Shown here: positions 87 to 37,738 of the stretch, piece after piece
How positions within the stretch are numbered: position 1 is the first letter of the stretch
Layout of the letters: every line of letters starts with the position of its first letter
Notes under the pieces: model-generated
The model's input: only the letters and a program-made list of their open reading frames with translations
Told to the model about the DNA's origin: nothing
Databases searched by the model: none
Assembly: GCF_013315695.1 (NCBI RefSeq)
Contig: NZ_CP054353.1
From: Escherichia coli
GTDB lineage: Bacteria; Pseudomonadota; Gammaproteobacteria; Enterobacterales; Enterobacteriaceae
Length of the DNA stretch: 64,000 nt
Reading direction: 5' to 3' (one strand)
Position numbers and translations under genes: made by a program

Positions 87-374
87 TCAATTTTCGAGGC
101 GATAACCGGCCATAAAAAAGCGCAACGTAGAACAGGAATTATTCTCACGAAAGAAATCCATTACCATCTCTTTATCCAGTCCATAGCGGCGCGTCAGAAT
201 ACCCGCTTCCCAGGCGCTGAGCTGGCGATCTCCGGTCTTTTCGTACATCCGGTGCGAGTAGCCTAATACAAAACCGCGTTTATAATCGGCACAGTATTTT
301 GTCACATTAACCGCACTGTCGGCATGCGTTGCTTTTAATCCCGCCATTAAGCCTTTACCAAAATGGTTATTCAT
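87..374 (-). CDS. yghW: small conserved protein, 95 aa (YghW-like)
   Basis: 95-aa ORF at the position and length expected for yghW upstream of the yghX-gpr block; identity from memory. Confidence 0.55.
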
Positions 375-492
375 CGTTCACCTCATTCGATATATATTGT
401 CATATATAGCGATATTTTAGGCAAAGAACGACTTTTGCGCACGCTATTTTTTCATGCTTGTTTAAGACGTAATCCCGTAAGAGATAAACCTA

Positions 493-1380
493 TCAGGAGA
501 GATATTTATCGAACCATTTCAGTGTCCTTTGCCAGGCAAGATCGGCGGCAGATTTGTCATAACGGGGCGTGGAATCATTATGGAATCCGTGATTAACCCC
601 CGGATAGATATACGCCTCATAAACCTTATTATTGGCTTTCAACGCCGCCTCGTAAGCAGGCCAGCCCTCGTTGATTCGGGTGTCCAGTTCCGCGAAGTGG
701 AGTAGTAAAGGCGCTTCAATCTTCGCCACATCGGCAGTGGGTGCCTGGCGACCATAAAACGGCACCGCGCAGGCCAGTTCCGGATACGCGACAGCCGCCG
801 CGTTCGATACGCCACCGCCATAGCAAAATCCGGTAATACCCACTTTGCCTGTCGCTTGCGGATAGCGTTGCATAAACTCAATTGCGGCAAAGAAATCATT
901 CATCAGTTTGGTTGGATCAACCTGCTGTTGCAGCTCACGACCTTTATCATCATTTCCCGGATAACCTCCAACGGAACTTAAGCCGTCAGGTGCCAGGGCG
1001 ATATACCCCGCCTTCGCCACTCGCCGTGCCACATCTTCGATATACGGATTCAGTCCACGATTCTCATGCACCACTACCACGGCTGGCGTTTTGCCGCTCA
1101 TTTTTGCGGGTTTCACCAGATAACCCCGTACCTCGCCGTGACCATTTGGCGAAGGATACGTGATGTACTCAGCAACAATCTCCGGGTCGGTAAACTCTAC
1201 CTGAGTCGCCAGCGCATAATTTGGCTTGAGCAAATCAAACAACGCTAATGCCGTCATCCCGCCTACCGCATACTTCGCCGCAAGGTTGAGGAACTCACGT
1301 TTCGAGATTTTCCCGTGAGCGTAATAGTCGTAGTAATCCAACAACTCTTGTGGGAAATCTTTGGCGGTTAAACGCGGCAT
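493..1380 (-). CDS. yghX: dienelactone hydrolase-family protein, apparently intact (295 aa from the ATG at 1380)
   Basis: Hydrolase-like ORF; GAGGAG Shine-Dalgarno 7 nt upstream of the ATG at 1380; the track ORF (493..1425) starts further upstream. Confidence 0.7.
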   Translation of the reverse strand: MPRLTAKDFPQELLDYYDYYAHGKISKREFLNLAAKYAVGGMTALALFDLLKPNYALATQVEFTDPEIVAEYITYPSPNGHGEVRGYLVKPAKMSGKTPAVVVVHENRGLNPYIEDVARRVAKAGYIALAPDGLSSVGGYPGNDDKGRELQQQVDPTKLMNDFFAAIEFMQRYPQATGKVGITGFCYGGGVSNAAAVAYPELACAVPFYGRQAPTADVAKIEAPLLLHFAELDTRINEGWPAYEAALKANNKVYEAYIYPGVNHGFHNDSTPRYDKSAADLAWQRTLKWFDKYLS

Positions 1381-1536
1381 CGTTGCACTCCTCAACTGGT
1401 GTTTTTTTAAGCAAAGCATAAGCACGTGTTTTCGCCCAGTTTTTCGTCACTCTGTGAGCCAGACTACGGGATACGCGCTGGCGAATCGCTAAACTAGAAA
1501 CATTGTTTCGAAATTGAACGGTGGAAAGGAGAGGTC

Positions 1537-2577
1537 ATGGTCTGGTTAGCGAATCCCGAACGTTACGGGCAGATGCAGTACCGCTATTGCGGAAAAAGCG
1601 GTTTACGCCTGCCCGCGTTATCGCTCGGTTTATGGCACAATTTCGGTCACGTTAACGCGCTGGAATCACAGCGTGCGATCCTGCGTAAAGCGTTTGATTT
1701 GGGCATTACGCACTTTGATTTAGCCAACAATTACGGGCCACCTCCAGGAAGCGCAGAAGAGAACTTTGGTCGCCTGCTGCGGGAGGATTTTGCCGCTTAT
1801 CGCGATGAACTGATTATCTCTACCAAGGCTGGCTACGATATGTGGCCCGGCCCTTACGGCTCTGGCGGTTCACGTAAATACCTGCTCGCCAGCCTCGACC
1901 AAAGCCTGAAGCGGATGGGGCTTGAGTATGTCGATATCTTTTACTCTCATCGCGTCGATGAAAATACGCCGATGGAAGAAACCGCCTCTGCGCTGGCTCA
2001 TGCGGTACAAAGCGGTAAGGCGCTGTATGTCGGGATCTCCTCTTACTCGCCAGAGCGGACGCAAAAAATGGTCGAGTTACTGCGCGAGTGGAAAATTCCG
2101 CTGTTAATTCATCAACCTTCGTACAATTTACTGAACCGCTGGGTGGATAAAAGCGGCCTGCTGGATACCCTGCAAAATAACGGCGTGGGCTGCATTGCCT
2201 TTACTCCTCTGGCTCAGGGATTGCTGACCGGAAAATATCTCAACGGCATTCCGCAAGATTCACGGATGCATCGTGAAGGGAATAAAGTTCGTGGTCTGAC
2301 GCCGAAAATGCTCACCGAAGCCAACCTCAACAGCCTGCGGTTATTGAATGAAATGGCACAGCAGCGTGGACAATCAATGGCGCAAATGGCGTTAAGCTGG
2401 TTGCTGAAAGATGATCGCGTGACGTCGGTATTGATTGGTGCCAGCCGCGCGGAGCAACTTGAGGAGAACGTGCAGGCGCTGAATAATCTGACATTTAGCA
2501 CCGAGGAGCTGGCGCAGATTGATCAGCATATCGCCGATGGCGAGCTGAATCTGTGGCAGGCGTCTTCCGATAAATGA
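1537..2577 (+). CDS. gpr: aldo-keto reductase, L-glyceraldehyde 3-phosphate reductase
   Basis: 346 aa with AKR-family sequence; AGGAGAGG RBS before ATG. Confidence 0.85.
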   Translation: MVWLANPERYGQMQYRYCGKSGLRLPALSLGLWHNFGHVNALESQRAILRKAFDLGITHFDLANNYGPPPGSAEENFGRLLREDFAAYRDELIISTKAGYDMWPGPYGSGGSRKYLLASLDQSLKRMGLEYVDIFYSHRVDENTPMEETASALAHAVQSGKALYVGISSYSPERTQKMVELLREWKIPLLIHQPSYNLLNRWVDKSGLLDTLQNNGVGCIAFTPLAQGLLTGKYLNGIPQDSRMHREGNKVRGLTPKMLTEANLNSLRLLNEMAQQRGQSMAQMALSWLLKDDRVTSVLIGASRAEQLEENVQALNNLTFSTEELAQIDQHIADGELNLWQASSDK

Positions 2578-2616: not shown

Positions 2617-3180
<564 letters not shown>

Positions 3181-3301
3181 TCAACATATCCGTTAAACCT
3201 TTGTCGCATAAATCCGAGGTTTAGGGATCTTCCTGGTTCCCTTATCAACGCATCGAGAGCGTCTACCCTTAAAGGACGTTGAACCTGAAGGGAGAAAAAC
3301 G

Positions 3302-14803: not shown

Positions 14804-15553
14804 ATGGAACAGGTTATTACAAAGCGCCGCTATTACGATATTGGTCTACAGATTGAAGAGCTGCTGTATTCAGGCGTATTTAAGGCCGGAGAACGCTTAC
14901 CTTCAGAACGTGAACTGAGCGAGCGGTTTAATACCAGCCGAACTACCATTCGTGAAGCCATCATTATGCTGGAACTGAAAGGCGTATTGAATGTGAAGCA
15001 AGGGTCAGGGATTTTCTTTGTCGACTCCACCGATAAGCTCAGCCAGAAATCATTAATGCCCTATTCAGAAATTGGCCCGTTTGAACTGTTGCAGGCGCGT
15101 CAGGTGATTGAGAGCAATATTACTGGTTTTGCAGCCAGCCAGATTAGCTTTAACGAGTTACAAGAGTTAAAGAAAATAATTAGGTTGCAGGAAAACGCTA
15201 TCGCTGCGGAAAGTGATAAATTTGAAGACCTGGATCACCGATTTCATAGCATTATTGCCGAAGCTACGCAAAATCGGGTACTCATCAAACAAGCCGCTGA
15301 ATTATGGCGGGCGGTACGTACAGAAAACCCCCGCTGGAAGAAACTTAACTACAAGTACCTGCATGAAAAGCATTTGCGTCTGCAATGGCTGGAAGATCAC
15401 CGGGCTATTTTCCTGGCTCTGCAACAGAAAGATTCAGAGCTCGCCAGGGAAGCCTCCTGGAGACACCTGGAAAACAGCAAAAATGAATTGATCAAAATCT
15501 TCAAACAAGACGCATCCATCAGCGATTTTGATGACTTTTTCTTCGCTCGTTAA
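14804..15553 (+). CDS. GntR/FadR-family transcriptional regulator
   Basis: 249 aa; N-terminal winged HTH (LPSERELSERFNTSRTTIREAI), FCD-type C-terminal domain. Confidence 0.8.
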   Translation: MEQVITKRRYYDIGLQIEELLYSGVFKAGERLPSERELSERFNTSRTTIREAIIMLELKGVLNVKQGSGIFFVDSTDKLSQKSLMPYSEIGPFELLQARQVIESNITGFAASQISFNELQELKKIIRLQENAIAAESDKFEDLDHRFHSIIAEATQNRVLIKQAAELWRAVRTENPRWKKLNYKYLHEKHLRLQWLEDHRAIFLALQQKDSELAREASWRHLENSKNELIKIFKQDASISDFDDFFFAR

Positions 15554-15875
15554 CCTTCATTAGTCCAGAGCTGGCGGGAAAAATAACGCCGGCTCTGCCT
15601 TCCGCCCTCCACTGGTACACGCTCTCTTTTTAATTGGTCTAATAAATCGACTATCATCAGATATCTTAGATTAGCGGCAATTATCCCAAAAACTGACTTC
15701 TAAAAAACTTTCCTTTCATTTTATTCATATAACTCATTGATAAAAATATAAATAACGCCTTGTTGTTCTGTTTCGTACTTTTATCTTTCTCTGCAAGCGT
15801 GATGCATCTCTCTGTTTTTGGCCTAGTGAATTATGTAAATTGGTCTACACACAAGCCACCAGGAGTAAGAGCATA

Positions 15876-17348
15876 ATGTCAGGGAACGAAAGTATCAATG
15901 CCGCCCACTATGATCAGGTAACCACCTGGCCTCGGGACGGGTTACAGGCAGATATTGTCCATATTGGTTTTGGCGCTTTTCATCGCGGACACCAGGCGGT
16001 CTACACGGATCTCACTAATCAACTTTCGGACACCCGCTGGGGGATCTTTGAGATCAACCTGTTTGGTGATGCTCAACTGATCGAAAACTTAAATGCACAA
16101 AATGGGCTGTTTTCGGTTGTGGAAACATCTGCATCGCAATCTACCTCACGCCTTGTGCGTTCGGTGGCTGGCGGTATTCATACCCCCAGAGATGGCATTG
16201 CCGCAGCAATCCATAAACTGGCTGAACCTCAGGTAAAAATCGTTTCATTAACCATCACCGAGAAAGGTTATTGCCTCGATCCGCAAACACGTTCACTTGA
16301 TCTCACCAATGGATTAATCCAACACGATCTACAAAACCCGGATGCGCCTCTGTCAGCTATTGGCGTGATCGTCTGTGCTTTGCAACAACGTAAAGCGATA
16401 GGACTCGCCGCTTTTAGTGTGCTCTCCTGTGACAACTTGCCAGACAATGGGCATCTGACGCGCAATGCCGTTCTCGGTTTTGCCCGACAACTGGACCAGC
16501 CCCTGGCTCAGTGGATCGAAGAAAATGTCTCATTTCCAGGCACGATGGTAGATCGCATTGTTCCGGCAATGACTGAATCGCAATTCGCCTTACTGGAAAC
16601 GAAAACCGGTTATGCCGATCCCTGCGGGATCGTCTGCGAATCATTTCGTCAGTGGGTGATCGAAGATAATTTTGTGCGCGGACGACCGAAATGGGATAAA
16701 GCCGGCGCGATGTTTGTCAGCAATGTTCAGCCTTATGAAGAGATGAAGTTACGCATGTTAAATGGTAGCCATTCATTTCTGGCTTATAACGGCTCGCTGG
16801 CAGGCTATGAGTTTATCTGGCAATGCATGGAAGACGCTAATTTTCGTTCCATTACCCACCAACTGATGATTAATGAACAAGCCCGAACACTTAATCCAGA
16901 CTTAAATATCAACATCCAGGAATACGCCGACCTGTTAATTGAACGCTTTAGCAACCGTAACGTTGCACACCGTACCGGGCAAATAGCCATGGACGGTTCA
17001 CAAAAGCTTCCCCAGCGTGCACTGACGCCCTGGCTGAAATTACATCAGCAAAAGCAAAACAATGCTGTTCTGTCACTGCTCGTTGCTGGTTGGTTGCATT
17101 ATGTCATTGATGCTGTTGAGAAAAGCCAGTCTGTCGCTGATCCAATGAATGACCAATTTCAGGCGCTAATAAAGGAACAACAAGACGCATGGCAACAGGC
17201 GCTCGCATTACTGCACCTTAGCGCCATATTTGGTGATTTAAGCAACCATCAGCCATTTATAAATGAAATAAAAATCGCCTTTGCGAATATAAAAAACAAA
17301 GGCATCAAGGCCACCATCAGCCAATTATTATCGGATGAGCAGAAATGA
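15876..17348 (+). CDS. mannitol-dehydrogenase-family oxidoreductase (UxuB/fructuronate reductase-like)
   Basis: About 490 aa from the ATG preceded by AGGAGT; family-level resemblance only. Confidence 0.75.
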   Translation: MSGNESINAAHYDQVTTWPRDGLQADIVHIGFGAFHRGHQAVYTDLTNQLSDTRWGIFEINLFGDAQLIENLNAQNGLFSVVETSASQSTSRLVRSVAGGIHTPRDGIAAAIHKLAEPQVKIVSLTITEKGYCLDPQTRSLDLTNGLIQHDLQNPDAPLSAIGVIVCALQQRKAIGLAAFSVLSCDNLPDNGHLTRNAVLGFARQLDQPLAQWIEENVSFPGTMVDRIVPAMTESQFALLETKTGYADPCGIVCESFRQWVIEDNFVRGRPKWDKAGAMFVSNVQPYEEMKLRMLNGSHSFLAYNGSLAGYEFIWQCMEDANFRSITHQLMINEQARTLNPDLNINIQEYADLLIERFSNRNVAHRTGQIAMDGSQKLPQRALTPWLKLHQQKQNNAVLSLLVAGWLHYVIDAVEKSQSVADPMNDQFQALIKEQQDAWQQALALLHLSAIFGDLSNHQPFINEIKIAFANIKNKGIKATISQLLSDEQK

Positions 17349-18361
17349 AAACATTAATTTGTCAGCAGCCTGGCGTTATGGAATATGTGGAAAAGGATAT
17401 TCCCACACCAGCAGATAATGAAGTGCTGTTAAAAATCAAAGCTGTGGGTATTTGTGGTACTGATATTCACGCTTTTGCCGGCAGACAGCCTTTTTTTAGC
17501 TACCCACGTGTATTAGGTCATGAAATATGCGCCGAAGCGGTTTCGCGAGGCAGCCAGTGCCAAACAGCACAATCAGGCCAGCGCTATTCCGTCATCCCAT
17601 GCATTCCGTGTGGCGAGTGCGCAGCCTGTCGGGAAGAGAAAACGAACTGCTGCGAACGTGTTTCGCTGTATGGCGTGCATCAGGATGGGGGTTTTAGTGA
17701 GTACCTTGCGGTACGTGAAGACAACCTTGTGCCTCTCCCTGACGAGGTCAGCGACAGTGCCGGAGCATTGGTTGAATGTTTCGCCATTGGTGCACATGCC
17801 GTTCGTCGGGCAGAGATCAAGGCTGAACAAAACGTACTGGTGGTTGGCGCTGGGCCAATCGGTCTGGCTACCGCGGCCATCGCCAGGGCTAAAGGGGCGC
17901 ATGTTGTTGTTGCTGATATTGATTGTCAACGTCGCCAGCACGTTGTGGATCATCTGGCAATTAATGTCTTCGACCCAACACAGGAAGGTTTTATTGCCGC
18001 GCTTAGTGAAGTATTTGGCGGCGAACTGGCTTGCGTAGTCCTGGATGCGACGGGAAATAAAGCTTCAATGAGTCATGATGTAAATCTTATTCGTCATGGC
18101 GGCAAAATTGTTTTCATCGGTTTGTACATTGGTGAACTTGTTATTGACGATCCGACCTTCCATAAAAAAGAGACAACGTTACTCAGCAGCCGCAATGCCA
18201 CACGGGAAGATTTTGCGTTGGTGATTGAACTGATGCGCAGCAATAAAATTCACGAAAATTTAATGAAAAACCAGGCATTCAATTTCTTTAGTGTTGGCGA
18301 AGATTACCAGCGTAACGTTGTAGAAAATAAAAATATGGTCAAGGGTGTGATCACTTTTTAA
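17345..18361 (+). CDS. zinc-dependent medium-chain alcohol/polyol dehydrogenase
   Basis: 338 aa; GHE zinc motif, GAGPIGL NAD-binding motif; 4-bp ATGA overlap with the upstream gene. Confidence 0.8.
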   Translation: MKTLICQQPGVMEYVEKDIPTPADNEVLLKIKAVGICGTDIHAFAGRQPFFSYPRVLGHEICAEAVSRGSQCQTAQSGQRYSVIPCIPCGECAACREEKTNCCERVSLYGVHQDGGFSEYLAVREDNLVPLPDEVSDSAGALVECFAIGAHAVRRAEIKAEQNVLVVGAGPIGLATAAIARAKGAHVVVADIDCQRRQHVVDHLAINVFDPTQEGFIAALSEVFGGELACVVLDATGNKASMSHDVNLIRHGGKIVFIGLYIGELVIDDPTFHKKETTLLSSRNATREDFALVIELMRSNKIHENLMKNQAFNFFSVGEDYQRNVVENKNMVKGVITF

Positions 18362-18371
18362 GGGAACAAAT

Positions 18372-19382
18372 ATGACAACTGTTTATGTCAGTGAAGAAAA
18401 TTTAAAATCACTGGTGCACCACAAATTACATACCGCCGGGCTGGATACCGACACCACACAACAGGTGACAGATGTTTTAGTACATGCCGATATTACAGGT
18501 GTGCATTCACATGGTGTTATGCGTGTCGAACATTATTGCACCCGCCTTGCTGCCGGAGGGTTAAATAAAGCCCCGCAGTTTAGCATTGAGCAAATTTCAC
18601 CGTCAGTGGCCATTCTCGACTCTGACGACGGAATGGGGCATTCCGCATTAATTAGCGCCACTGAGCACGCTATTAAACTGGCCCAGCAAGAGGGCCTCGG
18701 TTTTGTTAGCGTTAAAAACACGTCTCACTGTGGTGCGTTATCTTATTTTGCAGAGATGATCACCAACAAAGGGTTGGTTGCTATCGTAATGACGCAAACC
18801 GATACCTGTGTGGCTCCCCATGGCGGCGCCGAGCGCTTTTTGGGAACTAACCCCATCGCCTTTGGTTTCCCGGTGGAAAACAGCCATCCGATGATTGTTG
18901 ATATGGCGACCAGTGCCACGGCTTTCGGCAAAATACTTCATGCAAAGGAAACCGGAAAACATATTGGTGAAGGGCTGGCGATAGATAAAAACGGTTATGG
19001 CACCACTGATCCGTATAAGATTGAAAACCTGCTACCTTTCGGCCAACACAAAGGTTCAGGCATTGCACTGGCTATTGATGCACTGACTGGCGTGCTGATG
19101 AATGCGAATTTTGGCAACCATATTGTTCGCATGTATGGTGATTATGACAAGATGCGTAAGCTGGCAAGTTTGGTTATTGCCATCGATCCGAAAAAGCTCG
19201 GCAATCCTGTTTTTGCAAAAACCATGGCGCAAATGGTCACGGAGTTGCATGCCGTTAAACCGGCTCCCGGTATCGAAAAAGTGTTAGCGCCGAACGATCC
19301 GCAAATGCACTACAAAGAAAAATGCCAACAGGAAGGTATTCCGGTTCCGGCAGGAATATTCCATTATCTGGCAGAGAATTAA
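18372..19382 (+). CDS. Ldh_2-family dehydrogenase (malate/L-lactate or diketogulonate reductase-like)
   Basis: 336 aa; family-level resemblance (YiaK/AllD-like). Confidence 0.75.
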   Translation: MTTVYVSEENLKSLVHHKLHTAGLDTDTTQQVTDVLVHADITGVHSHGVMRVEHYCTRLAAGGLNKAPQFSIEQISPSVAILDSDDGMGHSALISATEHAIKLAQQEGLGFVSVKNTSHCGALSYFAEMITNKGLVAIVMTQTDTCVAPHGGAERFLGTNPIAFGFPVENSHPMIVDMATSATAFGKILHAKETGKHIGEGLAIDKNGYGTTDPYKIENLLPFGQHKGSGIALAIDALTGVLMNANFGNHIVRMYGDYDKMRKLASLVIAIDPKKLGNPVFAKTMAQMVTELHAVKPAPGIEKVLAPNDPQMHYKEKCQQEGIPVPAGIFHYLAEN

Positions 19383-19454
19383 TCACTACTTTTTATTATA
19401 ACGATAGAAAAGCGCTGTATTTATCGTTTCTGTTATATTAACCAGGAGCAGGAT

Positions 19455-20264
19455 ATGAAAGCACTTCGTCCTCTGACGGCATCGCTTATGCTGTTAACCA
19501 GTTGTTTATTAATATCTAATACCACACTGGCAAAAATAACATTAAAACTGAGTCATAATCAGGATAAAAGCCATGCTGTCCATAAAGCATTAAGCTATTT
19601 AGCGGATAAAACCAAAGAGTATTCTAATGGTGAATTAGTTATTCGCATTTACCCAAATGCAACATTAGGTAATGAGCGTGAATCACTGGAATTAATGAAC
19701 TCCGGTGCATTACAGATGGTTAAGGTTAATGCCGCATCACTAGAATCATTTGCTCCAGATTACAGCCTTTTCAGTCTGCCGTTCTTATTCCGCGACCGTG
19801 ATCACTATTATCGTGTTCTGCAAAGTGATTTAGGTAAAAAAATACTTAATTCATCAGAAAGCAAAGGTTTTGTTGGTATTACGTACTATGACGGCGGTGC
19901 GAGAAGTTTTTATTCCAATAAACCGATTACAAAACCTGAAGATTTAGCGGGAATGAAAATCAGGGTTCAACAAAGCCCCAGCGCCATTGCAATGATGAAA
20001 GCACTCGGTGGTGTCGCTACCCCGATGGCGCAAGGCGAACTCTACACCGCACTTCAGCAAGGTGTGGTTGATGGCGGAGAGAACAATACCGTTGTCTATT
20101 CCGATATGCGTCACGCCGAAGTCGCAAAAGTCTATTCACGTGATGAACACACCATGGTACCTGATGTGTTAATTATCAGCACCGACGTGTTGAATAAACT
20201 TGGTGATAAAGAGCGCACGGCATTATTAAAAGCAGCCGGTGATGCTGCCAACTTACTGATTTAG
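19455..20264 (+). pseudogene. TRAP transporter solute-binding protein (DctP family), 3'-truncated by IS1
   Basis: Signal peptide plus DctP-like sequence for 261 codons; last 8 codons (GDAANLLI*) are encoded by the IS1 terminal repeat. Confidence 0.75.
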
Positions 20265-20292
20265 TGTATGATGGTGTTTTTGAGGTGCTCCA

Positions 20293-20568
20293 GTGGCTTC
20301 TGTTTCTATCAGCTGTCCCTCCTGTTCAGCTACTGACGGGGTGGTGCGTAACGGCAAAAGCACCGCCGGACATCAGCGCTATCTCTGCTCTCACTGCCGT
20401 AAAACATGGCAACTGCAGTTCACTTACACCGCTTCTCAACCCGGTACGCACCAGAAAATCATTGATATGGCCATGAATGGCGTTGGATGCCGGGCAACAG
20501 CCCGCATTATGGGCGTTGGCCTCAACACGATTTTACGTCACTTAAAAAACTCAGGCCGCAGTCGGTAA
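20293..20568 (+). CDS. insA: IS1 InsA
   Basis: 91 aa; zinc-finger/HTH protein typical of IS1. Confidence 0.9.
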
Positions 20569-20990
20569 CCTCGCGCATACAGCCGGGCAGTGACGTCATC
20601 GTCTGCGCGGAAATGGACGAACAGTGGGGCTATGTCGGGGCTAAATCGCGCCAGCGCTGGCTGTTTTACGCGTATGACAGGCTCCGGAAGACGGTTGTTG
20701 CGCACGTATTCGGTGAACGCACTATGGCGACGCTGGGGCGTCTTATGAGCCTGCTGTCACCCTTTGACGTGGTGATATGGATGACGGATGGCTGGCCGCT
20801 GTATGAATCCCGCCTGAAGGGAAAGCTGCACGTAATCAGCAAGCGATATACGCAGCGAATTGAGCGGCATAACCTGAATCTGAGGCAGCACCTGGCACGG
20901 CTGGGACGGAAGTCGCTGTCGTTCTCAAAATCGGTGGAGCTGCATGACAAAGTCATCGGGCATTATCTGAACATAAAACACTATCAATAA
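20487..20990 (+). CDS. insB: IS1 InsB frame (transposase made by an InsAB' frameshift)
   Basis: 167-aa ORF overlapping insA in the -1 frame. Confidence 0.9.
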
Positions 20991-21004
20991 GTTGGAGTCA
21001 TTAC

Positions 21005-21046
21005 CGATTATGTCTACAGCAAAGAGTTGTATATCAAGGCACATTG
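21005..21046 (+). pseudogene. ygiS: orphaned 3' end of ygiS (DYVYSKELYIKAH*), displaced by the IS1-bounded inversion
   Basis: First 9 bp gattatgtc are the reverse complement of gacataatc at 26938..26946, which abuts the truncated ygiS; reading on yields ten codons and a stop, restoring the expected 535-aa length. Confidence 0.6.
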
Positions 21047-21184: not shown

Positions 21185-23443
21185 ATGAGCGATATGGCAG
21201 AGCGCCTTGCGCTACATGAATTTACGGAAAACGCCTACTTAAACTACTCCATGTACGTGATCATGGACCGTGCGTTGCCGTTTATTGGTGATGGTCTGAA
21301 ACCCGTTCAGCGGCGCATTGTGTATGCGATGTCTGAACTGGGTCTGAATGCCAGTGCCAAATTTAAAAAATCGGCCCGTACCGTCGGTGACGTACTGGGT
21401 AAATACCATCCGCACGGCGATAGTGCCTGTTATGAAGCGATGGTCCTGATGGCGCAGCCGTTCTCTTACCGTTATCCGCTGGTTGATGGTCAGGGGAACT
21501 GGGGCGCGCCGGACGATCCGAAATCGTTCGCGGCAATGCGTTACACCGAATCCCGGTTATCGAAATATTCTGAGTTGCTATTAAGCGAGCTTGGACAGGG
21601 GACGGCTGACTGGGTGCCAAACTTCGACGGCACCTTACAGGAGCCGAAAATGCTGCCAGCCCGCCTGCCGAACATTTTGCTTAACGGCACCACCGGTATT
21701 GCCGTCGGCATGGCGACCGATATTCCACCGCATAACCTGCGTGAAGTGGCTCAGGCGGCAATCGCATTAATCGACCAGCCGAAAACCACGCTCGATCAGC
21801 TGCTGGATATCGTGCAGGGGCCGGATTATCCGACTGAAGCGGAAATTATCACTTCGCGCGCCGAGATTCGTAAAATCTACGAGAACGGACGTGGTTCAGT
21901 GCGTATGCGCGCGGTTTGGAAGAAAGAAGATGGCGCGGTGGTTATTAGCGCATTGCCGCATCAGGTTTCAGGTGCGCGCGTACTGGAGCAAATTGCTGCG
22001 CAAATGCGCAACAAAAAGCTGCCGATGGTTGACGATCTGCGCGATGAATCTGACCACGAGAACCCGACCCGTCTGGTGATTGTGCCGCGTTCCAACCGCG
22101 TGGATATGGATCAGGTGATGAACCACCTCTTTGCTACCACCGATCTGGAAAAGAGCTATCGCATTAACCTCAATATGATCGGTCTGGATGGTCGTCCGGC
22201 GGTGAAAAACCTGCTGGAAATCCTCTCCGAATGGCTGGTGTTCCGCCGCGATACCGTGCGCCGCCGACTGAATTATCGTCTGGAGAAAGTCCTCAAGCGC
22301 CTGCATATCCTCGAAGGTTTGCTGGTGGCGTTTCTCAATATCGACGAAGTGATTGAGATCATTCGTAATGAAGATGAACCGAAACCGGCGCTGATGTCGC
22401 GGTTTGGCCTTACTGAAACCCAGGCGGAAGCGATCCTCGAACTGAAACTGCGTCATCTTGCCAAACTGGAAGAGATGAAGATTCGCGGTGAGCAGAGTGA
22501 GCTGGAAAAAGAGCGCGACCAGTTGCAGGGCATTTTGGCTTCCGAGCGTAAAATGAATAACCTGCTGAAGAAAGAACTGCAGGCAGACGCGCAAGCCTAC
22601 GGTGACGAACGTCGTTCGCCGTTGCAGGAACGCGAAGAAGCGAAAGCGATGAGCGAGCACGACATGCTGCCGTCTGAACCTGTCACCATTGTGCTGTCGC
22701 AGATGGGCTGGGTACGCAGCGCTAAAGGCCATGATATCGACGCGCCGGGCCTGAATTATAAAGCGGGCGATAGCTTCAAAGCGGCGGTGAAAGGTAAGAG
22801 CAACCAACCGGTAGTGTTTGTTGATTCCACCGGTCGTAGCTATGCCATCGACCCGATTACGCTGCCGTCGGCGCGTGGTCAGGGCGAACCGCTCACCGGC
22901 AAATTAACGTTGCCGCCTGGAGCGACCGTTGACCATATGCTGATGGAAAGCGACGATCAGAAACTGCTGATGGCTTCCGATGCGGGTTACGGTTTCGTCT
23001 GCACCTTTAACGATTTGGTGGCGCGTAACCGTGCAGGTAAGGCTTTGATCACCTTACCGGAAAATGCCCATGTTATGCCGCCGGTGGTGATTGAAGATGC
23101 TTCCGATATGCTGCTGGCAATCACTCAGGCAGGCCGTATGTTGATGTTCCCGGTAAGCGATCTGCCGCAGCTGTCGAAGGGCAAAGGCAACAAGATTATC
23201 AACATTCCATCGGCAGAAGCCGCGCGTGGAGAAGATGGTCTGGCGCAACTGTACGTTCTGCCGCCGCAAAGCACGCTGACCATTCATGTTGGGAAACGCA
23301 AAATTAAACTGCGTCCGGAAGAGCTACAGAAAGTCACTGGCGAACGTGGACGCCGCGGTACGTTGATGCGCGGTTTGCAGCGTATCGATCGTGTTGAGAT
23401 CGACTCTCCTCGCCGTGCCAGCAGCGGTGATAGCGAAGAGTAA
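21185..23443 (+). CDS. parC: DNA topoisomerase IV subunit A
   Basis: 752 aa; GyrA/ParC family. Confidence 0.95.
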
Positions 23444-23676
23444 TATGCCGGGGAGGGCGCTGTTTCCTCCCGCTTGCAAGGAACGCCGGATGAAACGTTA
23501 AGTCGTCATCCGGCAGCGTATTCTACCCCCGGAAACGATAAAAATTCCCTTGAAACCGTTGTTTATTCATGCGTTGCGATTAACAATACGCTTTTCCAGA
23601 GAGCGGCTTTTAACAATGCCCTAACCTGATTTCAGGTGACGTACAATGCCAGTCTCTCAGACCTTCAGAGGGTGTT

Positions 23677-24414
23677 ATGCTATATATCTTTCGTCTTATT
23701 ATTACCGTGATTTACAGCATCTTAGTCTGTGTATTCGGCTCCATTTACTGCCTTTTCAGCCCGCGTAACCCGAAACATGTGGCCACCTTTGGGCATATGT
23801 TTGGTCGTCTTGCACCGCTGTTCGGCCTGAAAGTTGAGTGCCGCAAACCTGCGGATGCTGAAAGCTACGGCAATGCTATCTATATCGCTAACCACCAGAA
23901 CAACTATGACATGGTCACAGCATCGAACATTGTGCAACCGCCGACGGTGACGGTAGGTAAAAAGAGCTTGCTGTGGATCCCCTTCTTCGGGCAGTTGTAC
24001 TGGTTAACCGGCAACTTATTGATCGACAGAAACAATCGCACTAAAGCTCACGGCACTATTGCGGAAGTCGTGAATCACTTCAAAAAACGCCGTATTTCCA
24101 TCTGGATGTTCCCGGAAGGAACCCGCAGCCGTGGTCGCGGCCTGCTGCCGTTCAAGACCGGGGCATTTCACGCGGCAATTGCGGCGGGCGTCCCGATTAT
24201 TCCCGTGTGCGTCTCTACAACTTCGAATAAGATTAATCTTAATCGACTGCACAACGGTCTGGTGATTGTCGAAATGCTGCCGCCAATTGACGTCAGTCAG
24301 TATGGCAAAGATCAGGTTCGTGAGCTGGCTGCCCATTGTCGTTCGATAATGGAACAAAAAATCGCCGAGCTCGATAAAGAAGTCGCAGAGCGCGAAGCCG
24401 CCGGAAAAGTTTAA
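23677..24414 (+). CDS. plsC: 1-acyl-sn-glycerol-3-phosphate acyltransferase
   Basis: 245 aa; HX4D acyltransferase motif (NHQNNYD). Confidence 0.9.
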   Translation: MLYIFRLIITVIYSILVCVFGSIYCLFSPRNPKHVATFGHMFGRLAPLFGLKVECRKPADAESYGNAIYIANHQNNYDMVTASNIVQPPTVTVGKKSLLWIPFFGQLYWLTGNLLIDRNNRTKAHGTIAEVVNHFKKRRISIWMFPEGTRSRGRGLLPFKTGAFHAAIAAGVPIIPVCVSTTSNKINLNRLHNGLVIVEMLPPIDVSQYGKDQVRELAAHCRSIMEQKIAELDKEVAEREAAGKV

Positions 24415-24488
24415 GTCGGCAATCTGTATTTTTGCGGGGAACACTTTCCTGCACGGTATTACTTTAGCCAGTTTTACATGGAGCAAAT

Positions 24489-25901
24489 ATGTCACTCAGT
24501 CGGCGTCAGTTCATTCAGGCATCGGGGATTGCACTTTGTGCAGGCGCTGTTCCCCTGAAGGCCAGCGCAGCCGGGCAACAGCAACCGCTACCCGTTCCGC
24601 CGCTGCTTGAATCTCGCCGTGGGCAACCGCTGTTTATGACTGTACAACGTGCGCACTGGTCATTTACGCCAGGGACACGCGCGTCGGTTTGGGGAATCAA
24701 TGGTCGTTACCTGGGGCCGACTATCCGCGTCTGGAAGGGCGACGATGTTAAGCTTATTTACAGCAACCGCCTGACAGAAAATGTCTCAATGACGGTGGCC
24801 GGGCTACAGGTACCAGGCCCGCTGATGGGCGGTCCGGCACGGATGATGTCGCCAAACGCTGACTGGGCACCCGTACTGCCCATTCGCCAGAACGCAGCTA
24901 CTCTGTGGTATCACGCCAATACTCCCAACCGCACGGCTCAGCAGGTCTATAACGGCCTTGCCGGAATGTGGCTGGTGGAAGATGAAGTCAGCAAGTCGCT
25001 GCCTATCCCCAACCATTATGGTGTGGATGATTTTCCGGTCATTATCCAGGATAAACGGCTGGATAACTTTGGTACGCCAGAATACAACGAACCGGGAAGC
25101 GGCGGCTTTGTTGGTGATACGCTGCTGGTTAACGGTGTGCAAAGCCCGTACGTTGAAGTCTCGCGTGGCTGGGTGCGCTTGCGACTGCTGAACGCGTCGA
25201 ACTCTCGTCGCTATCAACTACAGATGAGCGATGGTCGCCCGTTACATGTGATTTCTGGCGATCAGGGATTCCTGCCTGCTCCTGTATCGGTGAAGCAACT
25301 TTCGCTGGCACCGGGCGAGCGCCGCGAGATTCTGGTGGATATGAGCAACGGTGATGAAGTGTCGATCACCTGTGGTGAAGCGGCGAGCATTGTTGATCGT
25401 ATTCGCGGCTTCTTTGAGCCATCCAGTATTCTGGTGTCTACGCTGGTGCTAACGCTGCGCCCAACCGGCCTTCTGCCGCTGGTCACAGACAGTCTTCCGA
25501 TGCGCTTGCTGCCAACTGAAATCATGGCCGGTTCGCCGATTCGTAGTCGCGATATCAGTCTGGGTGATGACCCGGGTATTAATGGACAACTGTGGGACGT
25601 CAACCGTATTGATGTCACCGCGCAGCAAGGAACGTGGGAACGCTGGACGGTACGCGCGGACGAGCCGCAAGCGTTCCATATTGAAGGCGTGATGTTCCAG
25701 ATCCGTAACGTGAATGGCGCGATGCCGTTCCCGGAAGACAGAGGCTGGAAAGATACCGTTTGGGTTGACGGACAAGTGGAGCTGCTGGTTTATTTCGGTC
25801 AGCCTTCCTGGGCGCACTTCCCGTTCTACTTCAACAGTCAGACGCTGGAAATGGCGGACCGTGGCTCGATTGGGCAACTGTTGGTCAATCCGGTACCGTA
25901 A
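24489..25901 (+). CDS. ftsP: cell-division multicopper-oxidase-like protein (SufI)
   Basis: 470 aa; Tat signal peptide (SRRQFI). Confidence 0.9.
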   Translation: MSLSRRQFIQASGIALCAGAVPLKASAAGQQQPLPVPPLLESRRGQPLFMTVQRAHWSFTPGTRASVWGINGRYLGPTIRVWKGDDVKLIYSNRLTENVSMTVAGLQVPGPLMGGPARMMSPNADWAPVLPIRQNAATLWYHANTPNRTAQQVYNGLAGMWLVEDEVSKSLPIPNHYGVDDFPVIIQDKRLDNFGTPEYNEPGSGGFVGDTLLVNGVQSPYVEVSRGWVRLRLLNASNSRRYQLQMSDGRPLHVISGDQGFLPAPVSVKQLSLAPGERREILVDMSNGDEVSITCGEAASIVDRIRGFFEPSSILVSTLVLTLRPTGLLPLVTDSLPMRLLPTEIMAGSPIRSRDISLGDDPGINGQLWDVNRIDVTAQQGTWERWTVRADEPQAFHIEGVMFQIRNVNGAMPFPEDRGWKDTVWVDGQVELLVYFGQPSWAHFPFYFNSQTLEMADRGSIGQLLVNPVP

Positions 25902-25971: not shown

Positions 25972-26170
25972 TCAGGTCGAAAATAATCCTGGCAGCATCA
26001 GACTAAGCTGCGGGAAATAACAAATAATTGCCATTACTACAAACAATGCCAGAAACATCGGCAGTAATGGTTTTATTGCCCTGTCGATACTGACCTTACC
26101 AATGCTGCACCCCACAAACAGAATGGTGCCGACAGGTGGTGTGCAAAGGCCAATGGTTAAGTTGAAAACG
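25972..26170 (-). pseudogene. C-terminal remnant of a TRAP transporter large permease (DctM-like), cut by IS1
   Basis: Minus-strand translation from the IS1 junction: VFNLTIGLCTPPVGTILFVGCSIGKVSIDRAIKPLLPMFLALFVVMAIICYFPQLSLMLPGLFST*; no start codon. Confidence 0.6.
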
Positions 26171-26184
26171 GTAATGACTCCAAC

Positions 26185-26688
26185 TTATTGATAGTGTTTT
26201 ATGTTCAGATAATGCCCGATGACTTTGTCATGCAGCTCCACCGATTTTGAGAACGACAGCGACTTCCGTCCCAGCCGTGCCAGGTGCTGCCTCAGATTCA
26301 GGTTATGCCGCTCAATTCGCTGCGTATATCGCTTGCTGATTACGTGCAGCTTTCCCTTCAGGCGGGATTCATACAGCGGCCAGCCATCCGTCATCCATAT
26401 CACCACGTCAAAGGGTGACAGCAGGCTCATAAGACGCCCCAGCGTCGCCATAGTGCGTTCACCGAATACGTGCGCAACAACCGTCTTCCGGAGCCTGTCA
26501 TACGCGTAAAACAGCCAGCGCTGGCGCGATTTAGCCCCGACATAGCCCCACTGTTCGTCCATTTCCGCGCAGACGATGACGTCACTGCCCGGCTGTATGC
26601 GCGAGGTTACCGACTGCGGCCTGAGTTTTTTAAGTGACGTAAAATCGTGTTGAGGCCAACGCCCATAATGCGGGCTGTTGCCCGGCAT
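26185..26688 (-). CDS. insB: IS1 InsB frame
   Basis: Protein identical to the copy-1 InsB. Confidence 0.9.
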
Positions 26689-26882
26689 CCAACGCCATTC
26701 ATGGCCATATCAATGATTTTCTGGTGCGTACCGGGTTGAGAAGCGGTGTAAGTGAACTGCAGTTGCCATGTTTTACGGCAGTGAGAGCAGAGATAGCGCT
26801 GATGTCCGGCGGTGCTTTTGCCGTTACGCACCACCCCGTCAGTAGCTGAACAGGAGGGACAGCTGATAGAAACAGAAGCCAC
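26607..26882 (-). CDS. insA: IS1 InsA
   Basis: Protein identical to the copy-1 InsA. Confidence 0.9.
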
Positions 26883-26910
26883 TGGAGCACCTCAAAAACA
26901 CCATCATACA

Positions 26911-28512
26911 CTAAATCAGTAAGTTGGCAGCATCACCGACATAATCCTGGGGATTATGCAGCGGAAAACCGCCAACGTAGGGTTTAAGCAGTTTGATTAA
27001 CGGCTGATAATAGACAGGAATGAGCGGTGCCTGCTGGTTGATGATCACTTCTGCCTGCTGATACAACGCATTACGCTTTGTTGCATCAGCCGTTTGTGCC
27101 GCCTGGTTTAGTAAGGCGTCATACTGCGCGTTTTTCCAGTGGCCGACATTTTCCTCGCTATCGCTCTTAAGCGTGTTCAGAAAGGTGGAGGCATCATTGT
27201 ACGTCGCATCCCACGACTGCCGAGACAACATGAAATCACCGGCTCGTCGGGCATCAAGATAAGTTTTCCACTCCATTGTGCGCAGCGTCACCTGTGCACC
27301 CAGCCATTTTTTCCATTCGGAAGACAACGCTATCGCGGTCTTTTCATGCAGATCGTACTTGTTGTAGAACAGCTCAAAGCGAAGCGGATGAGAGGCGTCG
27401 TATCCCGCCTGTTTCAACAAGGCTTTTGCCATCGCGACGCGCTCACTCAGCGGCTTTTGCAGTTCATCGAACGTCGTCGCGCTAAAGCCTTTTACCTCTG
27501 GCGGCGTCAGCGTAGTTGCGGGCGTTCTCAACCCCAGTACCTTTTGCGCAATAAGCTGTCGATCAACCGTAAGATATAGCGCCCGACGCACCCGCACATC
27601 GTTAAATGGCGGTTTCTCAAGGTTGAAGTTGTAATATTCGCTGTTCAGACGCGGAATAATTCGTAGCTCGCCAGGCAGTGATTTTTCAATGGCGGGAATT
27701 TGCTGCGCCGGAACCCAGGTGAGATCGACCTCTCCCGCGCGATAGCGGTTATAGCCGGTGACCGAATTATCCAGCGCCAGATACTCAACCTGTTGCAATA
27801 CTGTATGTTGCGCATCGCGGTACTTTGGATTTTTGCGTGCAGTAATCTTTTCGTTAACTACCCACTGATCAAGCACAAAGGCACCGTTGTAAACCATGTT
27901 CTCTGGCTTACTCCAGCTATCGCCATGTTTAGCGATGACATGATGAGGAACCGGGAACAGCGTCGGCCAGGCGAGCATCGTCGTGAACCAAGGAACTGGC
28001 TGCTCAAGCGTAACTTCAAGAGTACGATCATCCATCGCTTTGACACCCAGCGATGTAACATCTGCTTTACCCGCAACAATAGCCGCGGCATTGTTAATGT
28101 GCGCCTGTGCCAGATAGCCAGCAAAAGGGCTTGCCGTTTTCGGGTCAACCGCACGTTGCCAGCCGAGGACAAAATCCTCTGCTGTCAGAGGCTGACCGTC
28201 TGACCACTGCAAACCGCTACGCAGATGGAAAATATAGCGCTTGCCGCCGTCCAGTATCTCCCAGCGTTCAGCCTGAGCGGGCTGCACCTGGCCTTCACCG
28301 TCCATCCATACCAGACCTTCAAACAGATCCAGCACAATCTGCGCGGCAGTATTCTCCTCTACCTTTTGCGGGTCGAGCGTGCCTGGGTCGCTATGATTGT
28401 TGTAACGAAAAACTTGTTGCGGGGCGAGCGGTGTGTTGGCGGGAACGTCAGCAGCGTAGAGAGGAGCCGCACTTACCAGGCTGACCAGCCATAATAAATT
28501 TCGCGTATACAT
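26911..28512 (-). CDS. ygiS: periplasmic oligopeptide-type ABC substrate-binding protein with an IS1-encoded C-terminal tail
   Basis: 533 aa; signal peptide; SBP family 5; last 8 aa GDAANLLI come from the IS1 end (native part 26938..28512). Confidence 0.75.
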   Translation of the reverse strand: MYTRNLLWLVSLVSAAPLYAADVPANTPLAPQQVFRYNNHSDPGTLDPQKVEENTAAQIVLDLFEGLVWMDGEGQVQPAQAERWEILDGGKRYIFHLRSGLQWSDGQPLTAEDFVLGWQRAVDPKTASPFAGYLAQAHINNAAAIVAGKADVTSLGVKAMDDRTLEVTLEQPVPWFTTMLAWPTLFPVPHHVIAKHGDSWSKPENMVYNGAFVLDQWVVNEKITARKNPKYRDAQHTVLQQVEYLALDNSVTGYNRYRAGEVDLTWVPAQQIPAIEKSLPGELRIIPRLNSEYYNFNLEKPPFNDVRVRRALYLTVDRQLIAQKVLGLRTPATTLTPPEVKGFSATTFDELQKPLSERVAMAKALLKQAGYDASHPLRFELFYNKYDLHEKTAIALSSEWKKWLGAQVTLRTMEWKTYLDARRAGDFMLSRQSWDATYNDASTFLNTLKSDSEENVGHWKNAQYDALLNQAAQTADATKRNALYQQAEVIINQQAPLIPVYYQPLIKLLKPYVGGFPLHNPQDYVGDAANLLI

Positions 28513-28620
28513 GGTATTCCTTACCGGAGAAATTATAAGCCCGACAACAATACGCCTGTGGCATTGTTAGCTCAAACTTATCGCGAGTGATTTGGCTCAC
28601 ACTCCGGTAAAGATTCCCCA

Positions 28621-32785: not shown

Positions 32786-33673
32786 TTAGCCATTCTTTCT
32801 TCCCGTTTTCAGTCCTCGATGGAAATCGTTAATTCGCTTAATGGTTTTAACCGCACGCTGCGGCACTGCGGAAGCTACCGACCAGACAATCATTTCCAGA
32901 CACAACAATACCGTACCATGTAGCGGCGTTTTCCCTTTTTCATCCCCGCGCGGAACATGAATCACGATACTGGCGTCTTTGCTAAAACGTGAATCCAGCG
33001 CGTTTGTCAGCAAAATAACAGGGATCCCCAGCCGCCTCGCCTCACGAAGCGTTGTCAGCCCTTCCCGGTGCGCAGATTTTTGCGCCATCATGATCAGAAC
33101 ATCGCCACGTTGAAGCGCGATCAGTTGCTCGGCAAGGCCAATACCCGTACGGTTTAGTGCCGTGGCAGGCAAACCTATGCGGTTGAATAGTCGTGCGGTA
33201 TAGTCCGCCAGGATACCCGAAGCGCCAATGCCAAAAATAGCGACTTGCCGTGCCTGCACCAACAACGCTACAGCTTGCGCAAGCGCGTGGCGGTTTTCAG
33301 GCTCTGACAGGACATTACAGGTATACAAATGCCCTTCAAGAACAAAGTCGATTGCGGTGTTAACATCGCTCGTCAAGTTACTCACCGTCGTAGACATCTT
33401 TTCGCTGGAACTAAGGGCTGGACCAAGCCACTGTTCCAGAGTGCGTTTCAGATCACGCAGCCCGGCAAACCCCAGGGCCTGTATAGCCCTGATAACAGTG
33501 GCATCGGAAGTGTTCAACGTGGCCGCAATTTCCATCGCCGTTTGCTCGAGTACCACTTCACGATGCTCATTAATGTAGCTGGCGACAGCTCTTAACCCAG
33601 GCGTTAACTGACTCGCGCGAGTGCGAAAACGCTCACCAAAAATATCAACCCGCGCTTTATCTTTCTGGATCAT
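32786..33673 (-). CDS. RpiR/MurR-family regulator (HTH_6 plus SIS domain)
   Basis: 295 aa; last gene of the ABC transporter operon, 4-bp overlap with the binding-protein gene. Confidence 0.8.
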   Translation of the reverse strand: MIQKDKARVDIFGERFRTRASQLTPGLRAVASYINEHREVVLEQTAMEIAATLNTSDATVIRAIQALGFAGLRDLKRTLEQWLGPALSSSEKMSTTVSNLTSDVNTAIDFVLEGHLYTCNVLSEPENRHALAQAVALLVQARQVAIFGIGASGILADYTARLFNRIGLPATALNRTGIGLAEQLIALQRGDVLIMMAQKSAHREGLTTLREARRLGIPVILLTNALDSRFSKDASIVIHVPRGDEKGKTPLHGTVLLCLEMIVWSVASAVPQRAVKTIKRINDFHRGLKTGRKNG

Positions 33674-34617
33674 TTAGCCTCCGGTAGAGGTCGCCCTGCA
33701 ATTTGTGATTGTATCTGCGCAGCCATCAGCCCCAGTGATGCAAAGGAGTTAGAAATTGCCTCTTCACGAGAAATCAGCACATAACGCCCGGAACGACAGG
33801 CAGTCAGAAACTGACACCATCCCGGCATGACTTTTTCCATTGCTGCCAGCTCATCCTGAGGTTTACCACCGGTGTCACCGCGCCAGGTTGCAAAAACAAA
33901 ATCGGCATCCAGTTCAGGTAAACGCTCCGCGCTCACATCCATTCGCCCACCTTCAGGAATGCTCTCAATCAGCGGCGGAAAACGAAAACCAGCATCGCGT
34001 AATACCCGCCCCAGCGAATGATAGCTATGCATCACATTAATTTTTCCCTGGTTTGCCTGAATCACCGATACCGTTATTTTTTGGCTGTCCAGCGTCGCCT
34101 TCAGCGCATTGATTTGTGCCTGATAGCGGCGTTCAAGTATCGCCAGCTGCGACTGCGTTCCTGTAAGTTCTGCCAGCTTGCGATAGATTTCTGGCGCGCC
34201 CCCTTTGAGATGATCAATGCTCACCGTGGGCGCAATTTTTTCAAGTTGTTCAATGGGCGTATTACGGGTCGGTTCTGTGATGATCAAGTCAGGCTTTGCC
34301 GCCACAATCGCTTCAATATCAATATCAGCGGTACCAATAAAGGCGATCGATGAATTATCAAAGTCGACACCTGTCAATAACGCGCCAGATCGAATGAAAT
34401 GGCTACCGTCAGGCCGAGTTCGCCCGTGGCTGGCGACAGGAGGTACACCGAGCTCAATCAGAGGAATAGTGATATCAAGATCGTGTAAAGAGACAATTCT
34501 CTTTGGATGAGCAGGAACAGTGACTTTGCGCCCTAAATCATCAGTAAATACCTGAACAGGTTCTGTTGCACGGGAAAAAAATGACAACAGTATCAGCAGA
34601 GAAAAAAATAAACGCAT
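33670..34617 (-). CDS. periplasmic iron-siderophore/cobalamin-type ABC substrate-binding protein
   Basis: About 315 aa from MRLFFSLLILLSFFSRA (signal peptide); GGGAG RBS. Confidence 0.8.
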   Translation of the reverse strand: MRLFFSLLILLSFFSRATEPVQVFTDDLGRKVTVPAHPKRIVSLHDLDITIPLIELGVPPVASHGRTRPDGSHFIRSGALLTGVDFDNSSIAFIGTADIDIEAIVAAKPDLIITEPTRNTPIEQLEKIAPTVSIDHLKGGAPEIYRKLAELTGTQSQLAILERRYQAQINALKATLDSQKITVSVIQANQGKINVMHSYHSLGRVLRDAGFRFPPLIESIPEGGRMDVSAERLPELDADFVFATWRGDTGGKPQDELAAMEKVMPGWCQFLTACRSGRYVLISREEAISNSFASLGLMAAQIQSQIAGRPLPEAK

Positions 34618-34627
34618 ATAACTCCCG

Positions 34628-35677
34628 TTAAAAACTGTTCCTGCGCTGCCAGAGCAGTAGCAAAAAAAATGGTCCACCAATCAGTGAGATAATGATTCCG
34701 GCAGGCAGTTGCAAAGGCAAAAAAGCCAAACGACCAATGCTATCCGCCAGAATAACTAACAACGCCCCCGATACCGCACTCCCCAGCAGTAATGTCGTCT
34801 GCCCGCCACGTAGAATAAAACGTGATATATGGGGTGCTATCAATCCGACAAAACCGATGTTACCAACACACGAAACGCAGACGGCTGTCAGGATTATGGG
34901 TGCGGCGACACGTAACAACGCCAGACGAGAACTATTCACCCCTAACCCGGTTGCAACCTGATGACCAAGCAGAGCGATATCCGCCGTCCTGGCGGTGAAC
35001 AGCAATAAAAGAGCGGCTGGCAACATCCAACAGGCTGAAATACCGACTAACATCCAGTTAGCTGCATGCAGGCTTCCCGATAACCACATCAATGCAGTTT
35101 GTACATCTCGAACATCTGCAGTGGTCATAAATACACCGATACCGGCGGCGAAAAACCAAGAAACACCAATACCAATCAGAACAAATCGCGGGCGGGAAAT
35201 ATCGCGCGCACAAAAAATCACGATTAAAGCCACCAACAGGCCACCAGCAAGACCAGCCACTGGACGCCAGAACACTCCCAGCATTGGAAACTGGAAAATC
35301 AGCCACAGCACAGCCACGCTACATCCTTCTTTGACGCCGATTAACCCAGGATCGGCAAGGCCGTTACGTGCAATGGATTGCATTGCGGCCCCTGCCATAC
35401 CTAACATGGCCCCGCATAGCAATGCCATGATGACTCTCGGCAAGCGAATATCCTGCACAATATAACGTGCGTCTGTGCTTACGTTTTCTGGAGCAAACAA
35501 CGCTCGTCCTACTTCCGATGCCGGAACAGAGAAAGAACCCTGCATCAGACCGAATATCAGTATTCCAACCGCAAACAGAAACAGCCCACCAAGCAACAGC
35601 AGATTTTTAGGGCGTACCAGTGTCGAAAACTTACCAACACGTAGTGGGCGTAGCCCGACGTTCATTATCCGACTCAT
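34628..35677 (-). CDS. FecCD-family ABC permease
   Basis: 349 aa polytopic membrane protein. Confidence 0.8.
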   Translation of the reverse strand: MSRIMNVGLRPLRVGKFSTLVRPKNLLLLGGLFLFAVGILIFGLMQGSFSVPASEVGRALFAPENVSTDARYIVQDIRLPRVIMALLCGAMLGMAGAAMQSIARNGLADPGLIGVKEGCSVAVLWLIFQFPMLGVFWRPVAGLAGGLLVALIVIFCARDISRPRFVLIGIGVSWFFAAGIGVFMTTADVRDVQTALMWLSGSLHAANWMLVGISACWMLPAALLLLFTARTADIALLGHQVATGLGVNSSRLALLRVAAPIILTAVCVSCVGNIGFVGLIAPHISRFILRGGQTTLLLGSAVSGALLVILADSIGRLAFLPLQLPAGIIISLIGGPFFLLLLWQRRNSF

Positions 35678-37717: not shown

Positions 37718-37738
37718 GATTGAATGATTCTCAATTAC
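37718..37738. promoter_or_regulatory. candidate Fur box in the divergent promoter region of the iron-uptake locus
   Basis: gattgaatgattctcaattac, partial match to the Fur consensus, in a 370-bp AT-rich spacer. Confidence 0.3.

Follow-up and report, generated by a model that had tools for sequence, protein, structure and literature searches.

The yghX locus in the window

The window, by which we mean the whole 64,000-nucleotide stretch of Escherichia coli DNA that was analysed, carries yghX as a single uninterrupted open reading frame on the minus strand (493-1380), made of 295 codons and a TGA stop. An earlier note had described the gene as a continuous 295-aa ORF and had left out its strand; the frame was confirmed. 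The start codon is the ATG at 1380-1378. Read mechanically, the ORF extends past this codon and comprises 310 aa from a GTG at 1425. In RefSeq, the identical protein WP_001137768.1 from isolate AF3 starts at the ATG, which is further backed as the start because it is also the start codon of YqhI, a small protein detected experimentally in K-12. The strong ribosome binding site described in the same note corresponds to a GAGGAG sequence at 1393-1388, located 7 nt from the ATG.

493..1380, minus strand: yghX coding sequence, 295 codons and TGA; matches the NCBIfam YghX model with 587 bits; identical to WP_001137768.1
1388..1393, minus strand: Shine-Dalgarno sequence GAGGAG, followed by the 7-nt spacer TGCAACG before the ATG; same sequence in K-12

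The neighbours of yghX are yghW and gpr, matching its position in K-12 and in the E. coli isolate AF3. The ORF is a real conserved gene and not a chance reading frame. It is also a gene already known, for which a family model, a RefSeq protein, a K-12 pseudogene annotation and a crystal structure exist. The analysis presented here adds the exact lesions of the K-12 copy and their order, the sharing of the K-12 allele by about 23% of genomes, the reading of the N-terminus as Tat-like and the origin of YqhI. A simple sigma-70 promoter scan of window positions 300-1600 found no consensus promoter upstream of yghX on the minus strand, and the number of sites returned by the promoter and terminator scan of the same interval was no higher than in shuffled sequences.

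Several features outside yghX were also recorded. Over positions 1-50000 the window is colinear with AF3, an E. coli isolate from a blood culture in the UK (NZ_OZ547117.1, starting at 2728871), and the two sequences show 7 mismatches in these 50 kb. Two IS1 copies (20237-21009 and 26166-26938) form a perfect 773-nt inverted repeat. They flank parC-plsC-ftsP (21185-25901), a segment that runs the opposite way to K-12, where the order is ygiQ-ftsP-plsC-parC-ygiS. They also split a TRAP transporter operon, so that its binding-protein gene and a 210-bp permease fragment lie on opposite sides. This arrangement has the appearance of an inversion mediated by IS1, with two essential genes inside it. 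The toxin-antitoxin pair mqsR-mqsA, found between ygiS and ygiV in K-12, is absent from window 28513-28620. Between ygiQ and the first IS1, a block that K-12 lacks at that position (14804-20264) encodes a GntR-family regulator, a mannitol-dehydrogenase-family protein, a zinc alcohol dehydrogenase, an Ldh-family oxidoreductase and the TRAP binding protein. Another block, between ygiN and parE (32786-39978), is annotated as a siderophore-type uptake system and contains a MurR/RpiR regulator, an iron-siderophore binding protein, two FecCD permeases, an ATPase and a TonB-dependent receptor.

Two deletions in the K-12 copy and the origin of YqhI

In K-12 MG1655 (NC_000913.3), yghX (b4658) is annotated as a pseudogene, with the 47-codon gene yqhI (b4755) annotated separately at its 5' end. 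The PGAP tag on yghX of the K-12 strain TG1 reads 'frameshifted'. Global alignment of the window with the K-12 locus showed 13 substitutions and two deletions in K-12. The positions of these deletions and of yqhI are as follows.

1271..1272, minus strand: K-12 lesion 1; TA of the Tyr37 codon (TAT, 1270-1272), present in the window and deleted in K-12
910..911, minus strand: K-12 lesion 2; CC of the Thr157 codon (ACC, 910-912), both C present in the window and one deleted in K-12
3098-3241 of the fetched K-12 locus, corresponding to window 1237-1380: K-12 yqhI (b4755)

At the first site, AAG TAT GCG in the window reads AAG TGC G in K-12; at the second, CCA ACC AAA reads CCA ACA AA. The statement of the earlier note that K-12 carries a frameshifted pseudogene was therefore borne out by the two annotations and by the two located lesions, and pairwise alignment placed the frameshifts at codon 37 (2-bp) and at codon 157 (1-bp). 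The same open frame was looked for in K-12 as a finding that would have told against this claim, and the K-12 frame is interrupted. Because the TA of codon 37 and one C of codon 157 are deleted, frame 0 of the K-12 gene ends at codon 48. Between the lesions the K-12 sequence runs in a clean +1 frame, and after the second lesion it is back in frame 0. With the three missing bases restored, the K-12 protein is identical to that of the window (9 synonymous and 0 non-synonymous differences), indicating that the decay of yghX in K-12 is recent. The window is undeleted at both sites and therefore falls outside the K-12-type pseudogene allele class. Programmed frameshifting in K-12 was also considered and was rejected: there is a stop at codon 48, two unequal shifts would be required, and a 47-residue product is detected.

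This 47-residue product, YqhI, consists of MPRLTAKDFPQELLDYYDYYAHGKISKREFLNLAAK followed by CGRRDDGISVV, that is, the first 36 residues of YghX and 11 out-of-frame residues. YqhI is the leftover start of yghX in K-12. The link between the two proteins is already visible at the database level, in the Pfam 'YqhI-like' family. Chromosomal tagging detected YqhI in K-12, and the paper concerned presents it as a new small protein (PMC6001520). Another paper lists it among 17 small proteins induced at low Mg2+, an induction suggested by ribosome profiling and RNA-Seq, and describes a yqhI deletion phenotype that was not complemented by the YqhI protein (PMC11429745). The main texts of both papers make no mention of yghX as a pseudogene or of a frameshift. 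Since these reports show a product in K-12, the promoter, ribosome binding site and start codon shared with the window gene are active. YqhI has been studied as a stress-induced small protein, and phenotypes attributed to yqhI should be read with its origin as a YghX fragment in mind.

Intact and broken alleles in E. coli

The frequency of each allele was determined with probes of 36-38 nt centred on each lesion, run against 5,426 complete E. coli genomes. Megablast requires an exact word of 28 bases, and a probe match therefore requires the junction itself. The counts obtained, which report the state at the two lesion sites only, were as follows.

K-12 junction at site 1 (2-bp deletion): 1,248 of 5,426 genomes
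K-12 junction at site 2 (1-bp deletion): 1,198 of 5,426 genomes
Undeleted site 2: 4,221 of 5,426 genomes
Undeleted site 1, sum of three SNP-variant probes: at least 3,881 of 5,426 genomes

Deleted and undeleted counts at site 2 sum to 5,419 of the 5,425 genomes carrying the locus. The first intact probe for site 1 matched only 843 genomes; widespread loss was considered as an explanation and rejected, as synonymous SNPs lie inside this 38-nt probe. With two added probes, 3,881 genomes were verified as intact at site 1, which left about 296 genomes unclassified there. Both K-12 lesion sites are intact in about three quarters of the complete E. coli genomes, and the K-12-type broken allele is present in about 23%. 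When 40 genomes were sampled across the ranking of site-1-deletion matches, about 30 came from people, from farm and wild animals including pigs, dogs, cattle and birds, and from water, and were not laboratory stocks. Because so many of the sampled carriers are of natural origin, the broken allele is a polymorphism of natural populations rather than an accident of laboratory culture.

An intermediate allele survives. The Swiss river isolate AVS0225 carries the 2-bp deletion only and is otherwise base-for-base identical to K-12 yghX; the difference between the two junction counts (1,248 minus 1,198) gives at least 50 genomes with the 2-bp deletion alone. Since AVS0225 carries this deletion on its own, the 2-bp lesion came before the 1-bp lesion. 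The clade with the deletions probably lies within phylogroup A. Intact yghX is the majority and ancestral state in E. coli and other Enterobacteriaceae, and the gene was lost recently, in two steps, in K-12 and a probable related natural lineage. A two-step pseudogene with a surviving intermediate, found in many natural isolates, provides a clean lineage marker.

A second, partial copy of the region was also encountered. In 661 of the 5,426 E. coli genomes, a 270-bp segment made of the yghW 5' end and the yghX 3' end lies between mdtM and IS1, and this copy accounts for the extra match places of the 1.3-kb query in the genome survey. Strain NCTC9041 was considered as a case of IS1 truncation of yghX, a reading that was rejected: the 270-bp fragment beside mdtM is the second partial copy. 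The main yghX locus is absent from this strain, and only the 270-bp fragment is left (3001-3270 of the fetched NCTC9041 locus).

The intact alleles were compared with one another in strains that diverge from the window by 1.3-4.1% over the 1.3-kb query region (isolates from a pig and a dog, O157:H7 and an ST95 strain), and dN/dS ranged from 0.035 to 0.165 in all pairs, indicating purifying selection. Full-length orthologues with 85-92% identity were found in Citrobacter, Pseudescherichia, Enterobacter, Kosakonia and Leclercia. More distant full-length relatives, with 36-68% identity, are numerous (606 cluster representatives below E 1e-30). Such conservation fits a gene that still works and that one lineage has lost, and intact YghX is probably functional, as judged from purifying selection and from its intact motifs. 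The suggestion of the earlier note that this strain may keep a functional copy is thus supported by the intact frame, the catalytic triad and the purifying selection; the special retention that it implied did not stand, intact yghX being the majority and ancestral state.

Two other explanations of these patterns were weighed. Frameshift pseudogenes of old reference genomes are sometimes sequencing errors, and the K-12 lesions could on that ground be put down to errors of sequencing or annotation, or to laboratory mutations, with no natural polymorphism behind them. Each exact K-12 junction is nevertheless found again in independent complete assemblies (1,248 for the first site and 1,198 for the second), roughly 30 of the 40 sampled carriers come from animals, people and water, AVS0225 holds the one-lesion intermediate in a river, and the 47-residue product predicted by the frameshift has been detected in K-12. 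The junction counts at both sites and the one-lesion isolate refute this explanation, to which we attach next to no weight. The second explanation is that yghX is open here and already silent or non-functional, a cryptic gene heading to decay as in K-12. The loss of the gene from about 23% of E. coli genomes without obvious cost is consistent with this idea, as are the failure of the scan to find a consensus promoter upstream and a literature that, as far as found, gives no function for YghX. However, the low dN/dS among intact alleles of divergent E. coli, the full-length orthologues of other genera (85-92% identity), the intact catalytic triad and the detectable product obtained in K-12 from the same upstream region all argue against it, and we consider it improbable.

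Domain organisation of YghX and comparison with known systems

The 295-residue protein comprises an N-terminal region of 58 residues and a hydrolase domain. The corresponding features are as follows.

1207..1380, minus strand: codons 1-58, N-terminal region with extension, Tat-like motif, mildly hydrophobic stretch and A-L-A
499..1131, minus strand: dienelactone-hydrolase (alpha/beta hydrolase) domain, residues 84-294; PF01738
823..825, minus strand: Cys186 codon TGC, nucleophile in G-F-C-Y-G; aligned to position 123 of ClcD 4U2C
682..684, minus strand: Asp233 codon GAC, triad acid; aligned to position 171 in the GGQD motif of ClcD
589..591, minus strand: His264 codon CAC, triad base; aligned to position 202 in the G-H-S-F motif of ClcD

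The protein matches the NCBIfam model NF041440 'YghX family hydrolase' over its full length (587.3 bits for a cutoff of 460, profile 1-292 of 292), and residues 84-294 match the Pfam DLH model PF01738 (164.8 bits against a cutoff of 21, E 2.7e-48, profile 1-217 of 217). The earlier description of a dienelactone-hydrolase-like gene agrees with both matches. A check of the catalytic triad, which had been proposed together with that description, found Cys186, Asp233 and His264 in place, aligned to ClcD positions 123, 171 and 202. Glu106 aligns to ClcD Glu36, the glutamate that pairs with the nucleophile. The canonical Cys-His-Asp triad and the paired Glu are therefore present in YghX and are also conserved in its relatives; among 32 diverse relatives (36-68% identity), Asp233 never varies, and variation at Cys186 and His264 is very rare. 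Because these four residues match ClcD and are conserved in relatives, the catalytic domain is a cysteine-type alpha/beta hydrolase. YghX is probably a thiol (cysteine) esterase or lactonase. The literature found reports no enzymatic activity or substrate for YghX. A review relates an old proposal, drawn from a GxCxG motif, that YghX is a cPHB polymerase (PMC3709699); this role was not adopted, the review giving no experimental support for it.

The N-terminal region resembles a Tat signal. Residues 1-36 match the Pfam domain PF23678 'YqhI-like' (E 1.5e-21). The sequence S-K-R-E-F-L is found at codons 26-31, with K27 and R28 at window 1297-1302, and is followed by a mildly hydrophobic stretch at residues 32-53 (mean Kyte-Doolittle 0.80) that contains Lys36 and Asp49. 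A-L-A at residues 56-58 is the predicted signal-peptidase site. YghX thus has an h-region of moderate hydrophobicity with an A-x-A cleavage motif after it, and the 4ZV9 crystal construct begins at about residue 60, just past A-L-A. In an alignment of 32 relatives, the motif reads R-R-x-F-L, the first R being found in 28 of the 32 (position 27), the second in 30 (position 28) and F in 29 (position 30); after RRxFL, family relatives likewise show mildly hydrophobic residues that lead to an A-x-A-type end. The enterobacterial YghX proteins, that of the window included, have K-R-E-F-L and then A-L-A at 56-58. Searches with two Tat signal models (TIGR01409 and Pfam TAT_signal) gave no match to the window protein even at E<=1, and TIGR01409 was matched weakly by 7 of the 32 relatives (best E 0.0041). 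As the curated Tat models miss the window protein, the Tat reading rests on the family alignment. By this alignment, codons 1-58 have the anatomy of a putative Tat signal peptide with a Lys-Arg variant, and export of the protein would be expected to follow.

Some properties of the first 58 residues point elsewhere. No residue from 5 to 24 differs between 12 enterobacterial orthologues, and conserved residues before the motif are odd for a cleaved signal; they could belong to a membrane anchor or a cytoplasmic module instead. The N-terminal region could accordingly be a retained signal-anchor, in which residues 1-30 stay in the cytoplasm and a single membrane helix connects them to a catalytic domain on the outer side, or else the whole of YghX could be cytoplasmic. 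The invariance of residues 5-24 would be explained in this way, and the KR in place of RR, the lack of a Tat-model match for the window protein and the listing of stand-alone YqhI as soluble (PMC11429745) are compatible with it. Against an anchor or a cytoplasmic protein stand the family consensus, in which RRxFL leads into mildly hydrophobic residues and an A-x-A end, and also Lys36, Asp49 and a mean Kyte-Doolittle value of 0.8, which is low for a stable membrane helix. Crystallographers moreover dropped residues 1-59 and still obtained a folded domain. We regard the anchored or cytoplasmic arrangement as unlikely, although it deserves serious consideration.

Collectively, the data presented favour an ordinary, ancestral and intact yghX that encodes a probable Tat-exported periplasmic hydrolase and that was lost recently from K-12 in two steps; we give this account a probability of roughly 0.9. 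YghX would be made from the ATG at 1380. Its first 58 residues would serve as a Tat-type signal, with a Lys-Arg variant and a conserved extension, which would be cut after Ala-Leu-Ala58, and the folded catalytic domain of 237 residues would then be a periplasmic thiol esterase or lactonase. In K-12 and a probable related natural lineage, a 2-bp deletion at codon 37 was followed by a 1-bp deletion at codon 157, with YqhI remaining in K-12.

A more far-reaching version of this account can be proposed tentatively, with the odds still against it: YghX may be an overlooked Tat-exported periplasmic cysteine hydrolase whose conserved 24-residue N-terminal extension, ahead of the Lys-Arg motif, is recognised by a dedicated chaperone or used in the quality control of export, and YqhI may be the stump of its signal peptide. 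If this were true, catalogues of Tat substrates built on K-12 would miss YghX, the gene being broken there, and YqhI would merely be a signal-peptide stump rather than an evolved small protein. K-12 is in any case unrepresentative at the yghX locus. Titles of metabolic engineering papers point to wide use of the K-12 yghX locus as a neutral integration site. Work that relies on this neutrality is valid for K-12-like strains only.

YghX can be compared with several known systems. The Pseudomonas enzyme ClcD (1DIN, 4U2C; EC 3.1.1.45, carboxymethylenebutenolidase) belongs to the same fold family (E about 4e-15). Its chains of 236 residues align from about residue 70-73 of YghX and do not have the N-terminal region of YghX. 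ClcD is cytoplasmic. E. coli is not known to have a chlorocatechol pathway. Compared with Tat signals (Z-R-R-x-F-L), of which natural Lys-Arg variants exist, S-K-R-E-F-L of YghX fits at every position but one, and the relatives have a true RR; enterobacterial YghX differs from Tat signals in having Lys in place of the first Arg and a highly conserved extension of 24 residues before the motif. The closest solved structure is PDB 4ZV9, an O157:H7 protein deposited as 'Uncharacterized protein', which matches residues 59-294 (E 2e-161). Apart from a tag residue at position 59, only 2 of the 236 aligned residues differ between YghX and this chain (V69F and S135N). E. coli YghX WP_001137768.1 is identical to the window protein and is the same gene at the same position between yghW and gpr. 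The yghX/yqhI locus of K-12 shares its location, promoter region and ribosome binding site with the window gene, but it yields only the 47-residue YqhI, unlike the window, which encodes full-length YghX.
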